A stretch of 64,000 nt of DNA from a virus. Its lineage: Duplodnaviria; Caudoviricetes. Position numbers and translations under genes: made by a program. The stretch is from IMG/VR virus record IMGVR_UViG_3300022666_000111. The stretch is one strand, 5' to 3'. Below, one piece after another: positions 9,496 through 30,230 of the stretch (positions are counted from its first letter, which is position 1; each line of letters begins with the position of its first letter). The notes beneath the pieces were generated by a model. That model was not told the origin of the DNA. It searched no databases and saw nothing but the letters and a program-made list of their open reading frames with translations.

Positions 9496-9882
9496 GTGAA
9501 CAACAAGTCGCACTACCTCGAGAACAGCGTCATCAACCACTTCCTGCGGAATAGCAGCGTGACCTCTCCCACGACGGTCTACGCAGCCCTTTTCACCGTG
9601 ACGCCTACCAAGGGCACGGCGGGGACGGAAGTCACGGGTGGTGCTTACGCCCGGACGGCCGTCACCATTGGTGCTCCGACCAACGGCGCCGCCTCGAATA
9701 GTGCGCCTTGCACGTTCCCCACGGCGACGGCCTCATGGGGCGTCGTTACGGGCGTGGCGATCTTCGATGATCCCACGGCGGGCAACATGCTCTACTTCGG
9801 TGACCTCGCGTCGACCAAGACGGTGGACAATGGGGACACGGCTTCCTTCGGGACGGGCACCCTGACGGTCAACGAGACCTGA
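9496..9882 (+). CDS. Small beta-rich fibre-associated protein (gp80-like family), copy 1
   Basis: GGAGG RBS; YLEN..INH...Y.ALFT..P....EV.GG.YAR...F.TAT..WG motif. Confidence 0.75.
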   Translation: MNNKSHYLENSVINHFLRNSSVTSPTTVYAALFTVTPTKGTAGTEVTGGAYARTAVTIGAPTNGAASNSAPCTFPTATASWGVVTGVAIFDDPTAGNMLYFGDLASTKTVDNGDTASFGTGTLTVNET

Positions 9883-10827: not shown

Positions 10828-11211
10828 ATGCCCAAGACCGTCTATCTCAACACCGTTCTTCTCAACCACGTCCTTCGGGGCGTTGCCTATTCATCTCCAT
10901 CCACAATCTACGTGGCTCTTTTCACGACCGCGCCAACACCGACCCTTCCTGGGATTGAAGTGTCCGGTGGCGCTTATGCGCGGCAGCCCGCGACCTTCAC
11001 GGACCCTGTGGCGGGCACGACCGCCAATTCGGCTGACGTTGTCTTCCCCACGGCGACAGCCCCTTGGGGAACCGTTGAGGCTTACGCCCTCATGGACGCA
11101 GCCTCTGGGGGCAACATGCTCTACTTCGCCTCCTTTGCGGCACCCAGGCTTATCGACGTCAATGACGACGCACGCTTCCCGGCAGGGCAGCTTACGGTGA
11201 CAGAGAGCTAA
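10828..11211 (+). CDS. Small beta-rich fibre-associated protein (gp80-like family), copy 2
   Basis: Clear paralogue of 9496-9882 (YVALFT, EVSGGAYAR, FPTATAPWG, GNMLYF). Confidence 0.75.
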   Translation: MPKTVYLNTVLLNHVLRGVAYSSPSTIYVALFTTAPTPTLPGIEVSGGAYARQPATFTDPVAGTTANSADVVFPTATAPWGTVEAYALMDAASGGNMLYFASFAAPRLIDVNDDARFPAGQLTVTES

Positions 11212-13527: not shown

Positions 13528-14898
13528 ATGCCCGTCACCTGCCCCCACTGTAACCGGCACTTCCCCAATTCCGACACGATCAACTCCCGGCACAAGGCAA
13601 TCTGTCCTGGCTGGCAGACCAGCGAGAAGCCCCGTCCTTGCCTGTGTGGGCACGAAGCCACGAGCCTGACGCAGATGAAGCGTCACCGGCAGCAATGCCC
13701 TACATGGAAGGCCCGGCACCGGGGCACGGTGCAGATGGAGCGCCTGGCGGAGACCCTTCAGACCAGACATGGTGAAGGGGTCACACATCCCACAGGCATT
13801 CCCGAGGCCGAGACCAGGCGCAAGGCGACCTTGAAGGCTCGCTACGGAGCCACCAACGTGTTCAGCAGGGACTCCAGCATCTTCGACAAGGTGCAGGCGT
13901 CCCTTGAGGGCAAGCGTCCCATCCTGCGGGGTTCCGACAACCCCTTTGCGGACCCTGTCGTGCAGGCCAAGATCCGGCGGGTCAACCTGGAACGTCGTGG
14001 GGTCGAGAACCCCCAACAGAGTCCCGAGGTCCGTGCTAGGACCAAGGCGACCAATCTTGAACGTCATGGGGTCGAGGAAGTCCTGGCCTCACCAGTCATC
14101 AGGGACCGTATTGCGGAGACCAACCAGGAGCGGTACGGAGGGCCAGCCTCGGCGTGCAACCCGGACGTGGTCGAGAAGGCGCGGCAGACGAACCTTAAGA
14201 AGTGGGGCGTCGAATGGACGTCACAGCATCCTGACGTTCGGCAGCGCCAGATCGAGACGGAGTTCGAGCACTATGGGACGTGGTTTCTTGCCTCGGCTGA
14301 AGGCAAAGAAACCGTCAGACGATTACTGCTTGAGAGATATGGCGTTGAGCACCCCCTTCAAAGTACCATGATCTACCAGAAGCTTATTGAAACGTCTATT
14401 GCCCGTTATGGCTTTGATCATGCCATGAAGCATCCAGATGTAGCTCGGCGGGCTCTTGAAGCTGCTGCTCGCCCTGGTCCCAACCGTTTTGAACAGGCGT
14501 TTGCCAAGCTGTTCCCACAGCTTCTGTACACAGGCAACGGCACCTTCTGGCGATGGCTCCCCGCCCTCGGGCACCACAAGAACCCGGACTTCATCCTACC
14601 TGGTCCTGACTCGAGACAGCCGAAGAAGGGCGTCACGAAGGTGGTTGAGTTGTTCGGGGACTATTGGCACAGCAGGATGTTCACGGGCAAGGCCAACTTT
14701 GCTCACGAGTCCGACCTTGTGTCCGCTTGGAAGGGTGTAGGTGTCTCGTGTCTTATTGTGTGGGAGTCAACCTACAGGAAGGATCCAGAGGCGACCCGAT
14801 CATGCGTTGAAGCATTTCTTTCTATACCATCTGCACAGGTGCACCCTCTAGCGGGAGATACAGATGAGAACCACATTGGAGATCAGCATCAAGGTTGA
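13528..14898 (+). mobile_element. Free-standing homing-endonuclease-like gene (Zn finger, RYG repeats, C-terminal PD-(D/E)XK/Vsr-like domain)
   Basis: Repeated T.L.RYG...P motifs; PDFIL...VVELFGDYWH...LIVWE; own promoter. Confidence 0.7.
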
Positions 14899-18910: not shown

Positions 18911-19486
18911 ATGCCAGGACACGTCAAACCTCTGAGCGGGCGCCCCCTTGTAGGGTCCAAGTCTAAGCAAGGGCTGCAATTCAAGATCATGGCTTTCTAC
19001 GGAAAGCCTCTGATCGACGAGAAGCGTGTACATCTCGTCGACCCTACGACCCTCACGGCGGATATTCAACAGGCCATGCAGATGCTCAACCGGAGCATCA
19101 TGCGAAGGCTACGCGCCGCGCTTCAGACCACGGACTATTCACCAAGTGCCAAGCGTATGCTGGCGTCGGCGGTACGAATCGAAATCAAGCAGAGCAGCCT
19201 GGCTGTAACGGTGAACCACCCAGCCTTCAAGCCTCTCATCATGGGGCAGAAGAGCCAACAGATGACCTGGCTAACGAAGGCGCGGGCGCCCATCCCGATT
19301 GTCACGGATGACGGGCAGTTGATCTTTCGAAGCGCAACCGCTAAGTCTATGGCAAACGGCAAGTGGGTGCATCCCGGCCGCCCTTCAACGGGCATCATTG
19401 AGAAGGTCCGGGAGGAGGCGCGTGAGGCCGTCAAGAAGCGCATCGCGGCGGACATACGCAAGCGACTGAGAGAGGCATCAAGATGA
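18911..19486 (+). CDS. Basic tail-completion/neck-associated protein (gp10-like)
   Basis: Very basic; W.HPG motif; position after the neck gene. Confidence 0.5.
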   Translation: MPGHVKPLSGRPLVGSKSKQGLQFKIMAFYGKPLIDEKRVHLVDPTTLTADIQQAMQMLNRSIMRRLRAALQTTDYSPSAKRMLASAVRIEIKQSSLAVTVNHPAFKPLIMGQKSQQMTWLTKARAPIPIVTDDGQLIFRSATAKSMANGKWVHPGRPSTGIIEKVREEAREAVKKRIAADIRKRLREASR

Positions 19487-20052
19487 GCACCGGAGACGTG
19501 ACTGTTCTGGGCGTGACCATGGGGGATCACGTCCTTGAAGATATCCAGATGAGTGTGCCACAAGGCATGATCGTCACCATTCCTGCCGAGCTTGCCTTGC
19601 GGTCAAAACACCTCTGGCAGGCCATAGCCCAGAAGTCCATCATGCGGATTCATTCAGGGGCGATCGGAGCACCAATTCAAGTGGCCCCCCATCAGTCAAA
19701 CCACGACGTGGTGATTGCAGCCTTGACGGATCAGAACAAGCAGCTCCATCAGACCCTTGAGGAGCAGCGGGCTATGAACGCCGCCATTCTCGAGCAGCTA
19801 CGCCTCCAAACGGAAGCTTTTAAGGTCATGATGGCCAAGGTTGAAGCCACGGGGGTTCAAGTTCGCGTTGTTTCGGCACAACCGGCCGTGGCGGGGATTC
19901 CCGCTGCGATCCTTCCGGACGACACGCCGACCTTCATACCGTCAAGCATCAAGCCTGTGGACGCCGAGGTTCGGATAGAATCCAAGACGGAGGAGTCCTC
20001 AGCGACCAACATCGCAAGCAATCGGAGCAAGCTCCGGTCGCTCCGCAAATAA
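19483..20052 (+). CDS. Hypothetical coiled-coil protein
   Basis: ATGA coupling; central coiled coil; C-terminal PTFIP...KLRSLRK. Confidence 0.7.
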   Translation: MSTGDVTVLGVTMGDHVLEDIQMSVPQGMIVTIPAELALRSKHLWQAIAQKSIMRIHSGAIGAPIQVAPHQSNHDVVIAALTDQNKQLHQTLEEQRAMNAAILEQLRLQTEAFKVMMAKVEATGVQVRVVSAQPAVAGIPAAILPDDTPTFIPSSIKPVDAEVRIESKTEESSATNIASNRSKLRSLRK

Positions 20053-21193: not shown

Positions 21194-21673
21194 ATGAAGA
21201 TCGCAACACTCCTCGGCCTCATCGCGGTTTTGGCTCTCACCGCTTGCAGCAGCTCGGATGACCCCAAGCCTACACCGCCCACGCCTGGCACCGACGCGAG
21301 CGCCCTCGACGGCTCTCCCGAAGCGTCTGCCCTCACTTGTGATGAAGACGCTGATTCCAAGCCCAACTGCGTTGGCCCCGTATGCGTCGATGGTAAGTGG
21401 ACCTGTCCACAAACCGAAGCCGGGGCGGACGCCGGGTGTGAAGGGAGTGCCCCGGAATGCTATTCCTCCAAGTGTGTCGACGGTAAGTGGGTGTGCCCCT
21501 GTGCCTCAGTCACCCCCGTACCCGCCTGCCCCACCTCCCCTCCCGTCTGTGTCAACGATACGGCGTGGGTTTGCGTCGAGGATTGCGACCTGAACGGTAT
21601 GCCGAATTGCGTCGGCGCTGTATGCACGGCAGGACAATGGACTTGCCCTATCTCCGACGGTGGGGCAGACTGA
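21194..21673 (+). CDS. Cys-rich repeat lipoprotein
   Basis: Signal peptide with LTAC lipobox; four C..C....C.xG.W.C repeats; DAG/DGG linkers. Confidence 0.85.
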   Translation: MKIATLLGLIAVLALTACSSSDDPKPTPPTPGTDASALDGSPEASALTCDEDADSKPNCVGPVCVDGKWTCPQTEAGADAGCEGSAPECYSSKCVDGKWVCPCASVTPVPACPTSPPVCVNDTAWVCVEDCDLNGMPNCVGAVCTAGQWTCPISDGGAD

Positions 21674-21710
21674 GGACGTAATGCCCAGAAAAGATGTGAA
21701 GGAGATGACA

Positions 21711-22727
21711 ATGACCAAGGATGTGGCTGAAGCCCCAGGGGTGGGTCTCGATATCGGGACCATGAACATCGTCAGCGCCAGGCAGCAAGGCGATAAGGTT
21801 GCGTTGGAACGCATCCGGGACGCATTCCTTGACCTTGACATCGCCGACAAGAAGACCTTGCGCCTTTCTCGGGTCAACTACGTAGAGAAGAACGGCCAGC
21901 TCATCGTCATTGGCGACTCCGCCTTGAACATGGCCAACTTGTTCAAGCGTGAAATCCGGCGACCCCTCTCCCGGGGGATCATCTCCGCTGGTGAGCTTGA
22001 CGCCCAACAGGTGTTGAGCTTGCTGGTTCACCACGTCTTGGGCGACCCTGTGACTCCAGGGGAGCACTGCTACTTCTCCGTTCCGGCCGCCCCGATCGAC
22101 GATCTCGATCAGGACATCACCTACCACACGGAGATCTTCCGAAAGATCGTCGCAGAGCATGGTTACACCCCTCACCCCATGAATGAAGCCATGGCGATCG
22201 TCTACAGCCAATGCGCCAATGAGAACTTCTCGGGGCTTTCGGTGAGCTTTGGTTCCGGCATGTGCAACGTTGCCCTTGCCTACCAGACGGTTCAAGGCAT
22301 GAGCTTCGCGGTCGCCCGGGGCGGGGATTGGATCGACCAACACGCCGCCAAAGCCATGGGCTCCACAGCGGCACGCATGTGCTCGATCAAGGAGAAGGGC
22401 ATCGACCTTGCCAAGCCCACCTGCCGCGAAGAAGAAGCCATTGCCCTCTACATCCGAGCGCTCATTCGCTATTGCCTCGAGGCTATCTCGCAGCAATTCC
22501 GCAAGGTACAAGCCTCCCTTGACTTGCCCGAAGCCGTCCCCTTTGTGGTCAGCGGTGGGACAAGTAAGGCAGGGGGCTTCCTTGACGTCTTCAAGCAAGA
22601 GTTTGAGGACGTTCGCAAGCGGGGCTTCCCCATCAAGGTCAGTGAGGTACGGGCTGCCCGCGACCCTCTGACAGCGGTAGCGGAGGGCCTCCTGGTCTTG
22701 GCCTCGGAAGAGCACGCCGACGACTAG
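21711..22727 (+). CDS. Actin-fold ATPase, volactin-like
   Basis: Phosphate-1 GLDIGTMN, connect-1 NEAMA, phosphate-2 SFGSGMCN, RGGDWID, adenosine VSGGTS, connect-2 AVAEG; AAGGAG RBS (alternative start 21681). Confidence 0.88.
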   Translation: MTKDVAEAPGVGLDIGTMNIVSARQQGDKVALERIRDAFLDLDIADKKTLRLSRVNYVEKNGQLIVIGDSALNMANLFKREIRRPLSRGIISAGELDAQQVLSLLVHHVLGDPVTPGEHCYFSVPAAPIDDLDQDITYHTEIFRKIVAEHGYTPHPMNEAMAIVYSQCANENFSGLSVSFGSGMCNVALAYQTVQGMSFAVARGGDWIDQHAAKAMGSTAARMCSIKEKGIDLAKPTCREEEAIALYIRALIRYCLEAISQQFRKVQASLDLPEAVPFVVSGGTSKAGGFLDVFKQEFEDVRKRGFPIKVSEVRAARDPLTAVAEGLLVLASEEHADD

Positions 22728-22750
22728 TCTTCCTGTCAAACACCTAGAGC

Positions 22751-28791: not shown

Positions 28792-28826
28792 TAGCTCTTG
28801 ACACGCTGGTAGTCAAGAGCTAGCTT
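28792..28826 (+). promoter_or_regulatory. Sigma70-type leaderless promoter inside a perfect 11-bp inverted repeat
   Basis: TTGACA(28798)-N17-TAGCTT, 7 nt before ATG 28834; TAGCTCTTGAC-N9-GTCAAGAGCTA. Confidence 0.65.
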
Positions 28827-28833
28827 GCCTTGT

Positions 28834-30138
28834 ATGGACGACCTTGTCACCTGTCTCATCTGTGGGCATCAAGCCCAAACCCTAGCAAGACACCTTAAGG
28901 CAGCGCACGGCATCACGGCGGACGCCTACCGGGAACAACACCCTGGTGCGCGCATTCGTTCGGAGGCTTGTGAGGCTAACCGTAGGGCTGCCATAGCGCA
29001 GGCTCATACGGACAAGCCGCGCACGGGGCTCAAGAAGACGATCGTGTGTCCTTGTGGCGTTGCCCATGATGTTGGGCTGACCTTCGCCTCGAAAGACCTC
29101 CGTTGCCCGGCCTGCAAGGCGCGGGACGCGCTGGCGAAGGCCGCTCAGCCAAAGGTGCGAGGCCCGTCACCGCTCAAGGGGCGCAAGCTCTCGGATGAGG
29201 TTCGGGCCAAGATGTCCGAGAACGCCGGGCGTTGGAACAAGGGTCTCACCAAGGATACGGATGAACGTGTCAAGGCTGTTTCTGAGCACCGTATGGGGCA
29301 GCCCTCTTGGAGCAAGGGCTTGACCAAGGATGACCACCCGAGCCTTCGAAGCACCTCCGAGAAGCTTTCGGCGCTCAAGACAGGGCAGCCCTGCTCCAAT
29401 GGCCTCAAGGCTGACCTCTCGGAGGTCGACTTCACGCCTTACTTGGACGCCACGGGGGCGGTTGACCGCAAGGCGATGGCCGAGGAGCTTGGCCTTTCAG
29501 AGCGTACGGTCACGGCCTACATGGAGGGCCTGGGGCTACGCCTCTCGGACGAGCGGACGCAGGTGCGTGTAGAGCGCGACCTTGAGAGCGGACGCTTCTT
29601 CGAGATGAGCCGCAAGTCAGCGGAGCTTACGCGCGTCGTGCTCACAGCGGAGCAGCTTGAGCCCTACCGGCAGGTCAACGGTAAGGTCGTCCTGGCGCAT
29701 GCCATGCGGGGCTTGGGGCACACGGCGACGACGATCCGTAAGGAATGCGTTCGGCTTGGACTCCCCGTCAGGGTACACGCCACGCAGCAGATTCTATGTC
29801 TTGAGGCCATCAAGGACGTCCTCGGCGGCGCTCCTTACGAAATGGAGTGGCGTTCGATGCGGTTTGTAAACCCGCCCACGGGACATCAATTCCGCTTTGA
29901 CGGCTACTTCCCGAGCCACGCCCTCGTGGTTGAATTCCAGGGGTACCAGCACTGGGTCTTTCCGAGCGTCTTCATCAAGCAGCGAGAGATCTTCGATGCC
30001 CTGGTCGAGCGAGACCGGGTCAAGGCGCGGCTCATCCGGGAGTCCGGTGACCTTCACTATCTTGAGCTTCGTGAGGATGAGCCCTACACGGACGCGGTTT
30101 ACCTGCGGGAGCGTCTTTTGGATGTCCTTTCTGTGTGA
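28834..30138 (+). mobile_element. Free-standing homing-endonuclease-like gene (Zn finger, NUMOD3-like, HTH, PD-(D/E)XK/Vsr-like nuclease)
   Basis: CLICG...HL...HG; WNKGLTK/WSKGLTK repeats; RFDGYF....VVEFQG.QH. Confidence 0.72.
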
Positions 30139-30176: not shown

Positions 30177-30230
30177 AGGGTGCCCCCGTAGCCCCTCCCC
30201 CTCGGCGGGGGCACCCTGTCTCTTTTCTTT
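30177..30230 (+). terminator. Intrinsic terminator
   Basis: 12-bp stem AGGGTGCCCCCG / CGGGGGCACCCT followed by GTCTCTTTTCTTT. Confidence 0.65.

Follow-up and report, generated by a model that had tools for sequence, protein, structure and literature searches.

A volactin-family actin gene within the neck and tail genes of huge phages, with a candidate adaptor protein

The window analysed here, a stretch of 64,000 nt of tailed-phage DNA (IMG/VR record IMGVR_UViG_3300022666_000111), encodes a genuine volactin-family actin at 21711-22727. The ATG at 21711 sits 7 nt past an AGGAG sequence, and other in-frame starts are present at 21705 and 21660. A minus-strand reading frame over the same bases (21648-22739) was rejected as a shadow frame of high-GC DNA. 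The sole Pfam match of the product is Volactin (PF25216), with an E-value of 1.4e-78 and a score of 265 bits against a family cut-off of 35 bits, covering profile positions 3-321 of 321. MreB, MreB_Mbl (PF06723), FtsA, ParM and the other Pfam families gave no match even at E<=1, and among 14 control genomes the Volactin cut-off was passed in Haloferax volcanii only. Compared with the chromosomal volactins of Haloferax, Halorubrum and Haloarcula, the phage protein is 40-41% identical over residues 12-337. No PHROGs family was found for the phage actin, and searches of PDB sequences with the actin, the terminator, the sheath and the 445-aa protein gave no useful match.

The original prediction, made from the letters of the sequence, had called the gene volactin-like as opposed to MreB, FtsA or ParM, and had quoted a set of motif strings. 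All of these are found in the translation (GLDIGTMNI, IGDSAL..RRPLSRG, FSVPAAPID, NEAMAIVYS, FSGLSVSFGSGMCNVALAY, FAVARGGDWID and GGTSKAGGF), and PF25216 being the only Pfam family at E<=1 bears the assignment out. The likeness to haloarchaeal volactin holds as well, at the identity given above, yet the prediction overlooked that the family is also widespread in bacteria.

The gene is embedded in a block of neck and tail genes (Table 1), which was surveyed by tblastn of the window's neighbour genes against 166 loci, 86 of them from phages. The order of the neighbours is fixed in the phage loci, and none of these neighbours adjoins cellular volactins.

Table 1. Genes of the neck and tail block around the phage volactin gene; counts out of 86 refer to the phage loci surveyed
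Feature	Position	Strand	Basis and remarks
Head-tail connector homologue, 297 aa	12579..13472	+	Start of neck/tail module; Tunturi_5 gp319, E 9e-36
Neck/minor-tail-type virion protein, 445 aa	17572..18909	+	Tunturi_5 gp322 'minor tail protein', E 7e-38; 64/86 loci
Conserved 191-aa protein	18911..19486	+	58/86 loci, same strand, upstream of adaptor
Candidate volactin adaptor, 189 aa	19483..20052	+	Coiled coil, C-terminal ...KLRSLRK; 46/86 loci (tblastn)
Small conserved protein, 136 aa	20088..20498	+	33/86 loci (tblastn)
Dps/ferritin-like protein, 198 aa	20575..21171	+	54/86 loci, just upstream of volactin
Cys-rich lipoprotein-like ORF, 159 aa	21194..21673	+	Signal/lipobox-like N-terminus in translation
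Volactin-family actin-fold ATPase, 338 aa	21711..22727	+	PF25216, AlphaFold2 model, phylogeny
Tail terminator-like (tail-tube-fold neck) protein, 396 aa	22751..23941	+	Directly downstream of volactin in 82/86 loci, 56% identity
Zn-ribbon protein, 140 aa	23948..24370	+	PF09723, E 9e-9; 73/86 loci, between terminator and sheath
Oversized tail sheath, 1428 aa	24483..28769	+	80/86 loci, 62% identity

The connector homologue and the 445-aa protein have weak matches to phrog_17327 'connector' and phrog_1004 'virion structural protein', respectively. No family was found for the 191-aa protein in PHROGs or Pfam, nor above cut-off for the 136-aa protein, while the Dps-like protein matches phrog_3636 'DNA binding protein' and phrog_858 'starvation-inducible regulator'. 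The lipoprotein-like gene occurs elsewhere only in the identical Logan contig L002 and in no other locus; since it is confined to this phage, its place between volactin and the Dps-like gene seems to reflect a recent insertion into the cassette. The protein encoded after the actin aligns with Tunturi_5 gp324 'tail terminator', and its AlphaFold2 model (pLDDT 79.6) has as top Foldseek match the neck chain of phage 812 (8qkh_G, E 2e-8). The model likewise matches the neck chains of E217 and Pa193 and tail-tube proteins, and DUF2460 is present in 19 of 38 orthologues. The Zn-ribbon protein weakly matches Tunturi_5 gp325. Both ends of the sheath match the gp326 tail sheath of the same phage (E 4e-58 and 3e-52), its C-terminal domain matches sheath genes in more than 200 mycobacteriophage, Gordonia and Bacillus phage records, and phrog_2839 'tail sheath' is found in 2 of 25 orthologues. 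With homologues of the Tunturi_5 connector, minor tail protein, terminator and sheath on its two sides, and the phage 812 neck fold next to it, the actin does lie between neck and tail-terminator genes, as the original prediction had placed it, and the survey of synteny finds the terminator directly downstream in 82 of the 86 phage loci. This part of the predicted context stands; the conserved adaptor gene at 19483-20052 had been overlooked.

Other features were noted in or near the block. A homing-endonuclease-like gene (13528-14898, plus strand; DUF7487, phrog_3339) is located inside the neck module and is probably mobile, since it is present in only 11 related loci. Upstream of the neck genes, two paralogous Gp80-type genes (9496-9882 and 10828-11211, plus strand) match PF23140 (podophage GP4 fiber I) and phrog_240 'head protein'. 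A scan for promoters and terminators returned fewer sites than were obtained in shuffled sequence, and an operon is therefore neither supported nor refuted by it. No plus-strand terminator-like hairpin was found between 18.2 and 30.2 kb. The only convincing one downstream, at 30204-30223, follows a ROS/MucR-domain gene (28825-30138) and may mark the end of the transcription unit.

Across loci, volactin identity is correlated with the identity of its neighbours, with rho values of 0.72 for the terminator, 0.77 for the sheath and 0.63 for the 445-aa protein. At the median, volactin is 64% identical, the sheath 62% and the terminator 56%. Base composition at the actin gene is unremarkable. As judged from these sequence identities, volactin is under strong constraint and evolves as slowly as the tail sheath, and it has been inherited vertically with the tail genes.

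An AlphaFold2 model of the phage actin, for which an alignment of 60 diverse relatives served as input, reached a pLDDT of 96.4 and a pTM of 0.93. Foldseek returned the MamK filament as the top match (5ljv_A, E 6e-16), followed by MreB, BeeR, EutJ, crenactin and actin, and VIA-align gave Z-scores of 28.7 for MamK (2.9 A over 292 residues), 27.2 for BeeR, about 26 for MreB, about 25 for actin and 24.6 for DnaK (Hsp70). On these comparisons the phage protein has an actin-like fold, and MamK, BeeR and MreB, which match it best, are filament subunits. The nucleotide-binding motifs are intact: among 60 diverse members D14, G16 and T17 (phosphate 1), E159, G181 and G183 (phosphate 2), and G282 and G283 (adenosine) show little or no variation, and the connect motif is likewise present. 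The phosphate-2 loop reads S-F-G-S-G throughout the volactin family, without the usual Asp, and the ATPase chemistry may for this reason differ from that of actin and MreB. A complex prediction with two copies of the protein, run without controls, scored 0.00 and is not informative either way.

A gene of this fold among neck and tail genes could instead encode a non-polymerising ASKHA ATPase, a chaperone of the Hsp70 kind that assists neck or tail proteins in assembly. BFVD contains no close viral structure for the phage actin and the nearest predicted viral structures in it are Hsp70 homologues, while DnaK scores close to actin, so that in these model comparisons the margin of the filament formers (Z 25-29) over Hsp70 is small. 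However, the best solved structures are filament subunits, the sequence belongs to a family whose founding member forms filaments in vivo, the phage protein is without a substrate-binding domain, and the same pairing of actin and tail-bearing partner is found in cells where no tail genes accompany it (see below). We regard a chaperone as quite unlikely. A separate BFVD match, G3MAP7 (Gp506 of Bacillus phage G, 371 aa), has an actin fold with 12% identity to the phage actin and a TM-score of about 0.5, which suggests that an unrelated ASKHA protein may exist in phage G-like phages.

Many relatives, about 700 aa in length, align with the actin in two pieces, and Pfam identifies Hint/intein-splicing domains together with LAGLIDADG or HNH endonucleases within such long relatives. 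Of the 150 top clusters, 15 have inserts. These occupy at least five sites, each of them either between S179 and A188, in the phosphate-2 loop, or after R203, in the RGGDWID motif. In relatives P0122, P0123, P0125, P0129, P0134, P0135, P0150, P0162 and others the inserts are 330-450 aa long, and there is one mini-intein. Inteins typically home into active-site sequence that is invariant and that the protein cannot do without. By their pattern of insertion the phage volactin genes are an intein hot-spot, and this marks the nucleotide-binding loop as critical to function. Among other long relatives, P0159 (1160 aa) has its volactin domain fused to a Wzz/GNVR/ParA-like tyrosine-kinase-type module, and P0126 and P0142 (about 730-750 aa) are extended at the N-terminus by about 340 aa, a region that itself partly matches volactin.

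Only two phage records matched the actin, LR745208.1 (485 kb, 56% identity) and LR756511.1 (595 kb, 29%), both from uncultured huge phages. Relatives are far more numerous in environmental data. A large protein collection yielded 2192 at E<1e-5, the best 120 of which all belong to PF25216 and are 71-86% identical, and many of them lie on contigs 250-430 kb long; an exhaustive search returned 1078 clusters at 50% identity. In IMG/VR at least 520 stretches encode relatives, and the best 80 of these are 55-78% identical, on contigs of up to 529 kb. In a search of one genome per prokaryote species, haloarchaea throughout were found to carry a chromosomal volactin at 40-41% identity to the phage actin. 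Cellular copies with 39-45% identity are also present in Planctomycetota, Omnitrophota, Anaerolineae, Acidobacteriota, Aerophobetes and Clostridia MAGs, and the family is thus not confined to haloarchaea.

In an unrooted likelihood tree of 63 rows the phage volactins form one clade (SH-aLRT 100, stem 0.98). Haloarchaea and Thermoplasmata form a second clade (SH-aLRT 100), and the bacterial copies fall into two further clades. The copy of the 595-kb phage (locus L004, LR756511.1, 548798-549799) is a lone long branch; it is very divergent, at the 29% identity noted above, and still scores above the Pfam cut-off. Within 12 kb of this copy no gene of the window's tail module was detected, suggesting that the family has a second phage lineage, separate from the first. 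Five loci from GTDB species genomes (L007, L008, L009, L010 and L082) had been binned as Legionellales, Betaproteobacteria, Thermoplasmata and Lysinibacter MAGs. L007, L008, L010 and L082 branch within the phage clade, and L007, L009, L010 and L082 have phage tail-gene neighbours, indicating misbinned huge-phage contigs, whereas L008 is without such genes. Several contigs labelled 'bacterial' or 'archaeal' that carry a phage-clade actin are therefore really phage contigs.

It is most likely that a large clade of huge uncultured phages took up volactin once and has kept it as a core gene. A recent host-derived 'moron' was rejected as an explanation, given the lack of a composition anomaly, the single phage clade on a long stem and the co-divergence with tail genes. 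A haloarchaeal virus was rejected as well, because the relatives are tailed phages of huge size and the module's cultured relative has its host among the Acidobacteriota. Two further points of the original prediction agree with these data: the actin is phage-encoded, with relatives on huge-phage contigs, a single phage clade and tail-gene neighbours, and it groups with polymerising actins (the volactin family by sequence, with MamK, BeeR and MreB as top structural matches), where clustering with non-polymerising ASKHA enzymes would have counted against the prediction.

The gene at 19483-20052 encodes the candidate partner of the actin. Its product has a small N-terminal domain followed by a coiled coil, a P-x-F-I-P-S motif, an acidic and Ser-containing spacer and a basic tail. 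In an alignment of 24 orthologues, conservation is concentrated in the N-terminal domain, the P-x-F-I-P-S motif and the tail, and within the tail L184 is invariant and R188 is kept in at least 90%. As the tail patterns were defined from these same loci after inspection, the following counts are descriptive: in 59 of 68 loci a plus-strand ORF that ends in L-[RK]-x-[LMFIVA]-[RK] lies upstream of volactin at a distance of no more than 2.6 kb, the other 9 carry near-variants of the motif, and the motif ends just 77 of 3425 six-frame ORFs, 61 of which are at this place upstream of volactin. Bacterial volactins have neighbours with like tails in 7 of 11 loci (...AVAALRKLK, ...AIRALKSLR, ...SLERLRKMR). 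In 52 haloarchaeal loci a DUF7139 protein is encoded upstream of volactin on the same strand, and it ends in an acidic stretch and then a ...VDRIRGLF-type helix. A tail-bearing partner is conserved ahead of volactin at practically every phage locus, and its tail motif is shared with neighbours of the cellular volactins.

No Pfam family and no recognisable DNA-binding family was found for the phage adaptor, and a search of the Atlas with it returned viral clusters only. The adaptor body is phage-specific, and the combination of a variable body and a constant tail fits the design of a docking adaptor. The P-x-F-I-P-S motif belongs to a longer second motif, (D/E)-x-P-x-F-I-P-S, about 30 residues before the basic tail (alignment columns about 245-255). 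We take it to be loosely like the FtsZ C-terminal peptide that binds FtsA, as a lead only. Where the phage adaptor has P-x-F-I-P-S, the bacterial partners have N-F-E-R-L-G-K.

An actin paired with a small adaptor-like protein brings to mind ParM/AlpC-like systems, in which the filament would move or anchor phage DNA through the adaptor, whether in replication foci or in a plasmid-like carrier state, and the place of the gene in the tail block would be incidental. The characterised phage actin AlpC acts in this manner with its adaptor AlpA (PMC4446434, PMC5539076), and the Dps-like DNA-binding gene lies just upstream of volactin in 54 of 86 loci. However, the adaptor is without a recognisable DNA-binding family, the actin has no Pfam match to ParM or related families, and no iteron or centromere-like repeats were found at 18.8-22.8 kb or 15-31 kb; the repeats near the actin are short, in two copies and within coding sequence only, with no tandem array. 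The actin-adaptor pair is moreover fixed inside virion genes and co-diverges with them. DNA positioning is accordingly judged unlikely.

The partner also bears on whether the phage protein could be a host-takeover factor, a mimic of MreB or volactin that reshapes or enlarges the host cell for very large virions. Volactin does affect cell shape in H. volcanii and MreB is among the closest structures. Yet the actin has no MreB_Mbl match in Pfam, its partner is phage-specific and not a host shape protein, and a place among late-type structural genes would be odd for a takeover factor, all of which makes host takeover distinctly improbable.

We favour, with somewhat more confidence than doubt, a phage volactin filament that is made late and, together with its adaptor, organises virion assembly. 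Most likely the protein is an ATP binder that assembles into dynamic filaments in the cytoplasm, like volactin of H. volcanii. It would probably work with the coiled-coil protein of 19483-20052, whose basic C-terminal tail would dock on the actin while the N-terminal domain would hold a cargo or an anchor. The tight placing of the actin-adaptor pair among the genes for neck, tail terminator and sheath makes it probable that the filament is produced late and organises virion assembly or the positioning of virion parts. From the position of the gene we infer, in line with the original prediction, that such a filament may transport, position or join heads and tails as an actin counterpart of PhuZ.

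A broader reading, which we put forward tentatively and hold to be rather doubtful as a whole, is that volactin and a partner with a C-terminal docking peptide constitute an ancient two-part module. The module would be common to haloarchaea, several bacterial phyla and the huge-phage clade, the docking peptide would consist of an acidic spacer and an L-R/K-x-L-R/K helix, and the phages would have rewired it, by way of a phage-only adaptor body, to move or position virion parts.

The cytoskeletons known from phages comprise the PhuZ/TubZ tubulins and a few actins of ParM/Alp type in temperate elements. Phage volactin belongs to a different actin family and is a core gene of hundreds of huge-phage genomes, lodged in their virion-assembly block, with a candidate adaptor of its own. 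If the filaments are real, they would represent a second, actin-based route by which phages organise the interior of the cell, and the little-studied volactin family would gain a binding partner open to testing, whether in phages, bacteria or archaea. Should the ancient-module reading be true as well, the phage system would rank as the first actin cytoskeleton devoted to phage morphogenesis.

The closest known system is volactin itself (VolA, HVO_2015) of Haloferax volcanii, which forms dynamic filaments in vivo and takes part in the change of cell shape from rod to disk (Schiller et al. 2024, PMC10869688). The founding paper makes no mention of phages or viruses, the jumbo-phage reviews searched do not mention phage actins, and no description of a phage volactin system was found in the literature searched. 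The phage protein matches the same Pfam family over its full length and shares the motif set of VolA, including the Asp-less phosphate-2 loop, and in both haloarchaea and phages the same-strand upstream neighbour has an acidic spacer and a short basic amphipathic tail. Unlike VolA, the phage gene falls in a separate, well-supported clade and is embedded in neck and tail genes, and the body of its partner is a phage-only coiled-coil protein and not DUF7139. A cell-shape role for the phage protein is unlikely. MamK, BeeR and MreB (5ljv, 8r2n, 1jcf, 4cze) superpose on the model with Z-scores of 26-29 and an rmsd of 2.9-3.6 A over 280-303 residues. All three are filament formers, but their identity to phage volactin is only 17-23%, and the phage gene lies in neither a magnetosome nor a cell-wall context.

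For the surrounding module the nearest cultured relative is Tunturi_5, a 308-kb phage of an acidobacterium (PP885688.1; PMC11924767). Its head-tail connector, minor tail, tail terminator, small protein and tail sheath homologues are collinear with those of the window. However, Tunturi_5 has no volactin and no adaptor, and a single 159-aa gene lies between gp322 and the terminator. The actin cassette has consequently been inserted into an older neck and tail module, and since Tunturi_5 builds the same module without it, the actin system is not required for this virion type.

Two characterised phage cytoskeletons invite comparison. AlpC and AlpA of prophage CGP3 of Corynebacterium glutamicum are a phage actin and a DNA-binding adaptor with alpS sites (PMC4446434, PMC5539076). 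The window likewise has a phage-encoded actin-like protein paired with a predicted adaptor, but the actin is of another family and no DNA-binding domain or repeats were found; AlpC is a gene of a temperate prophage, whereas phage volactin belongs to a virion module of huge phages. The other is the PhuZ tubulin spindle of the nucleus-forming jumbo phages (reviewed in PMC8314001 and PMC7950403). No member of the tubulin family was detected in two complete relatives of the phage, although a divergent PhuZ could escape such a search. PhuZ has a tubulin fold and lies outside the tail genes, whereas phage volactin has an actin fold and is not a tubulin/FtsZ GTPase. What the two would share is a cytoskeletal polymer, predicted in our case, in very large phages, and with it a possible analogy of function.
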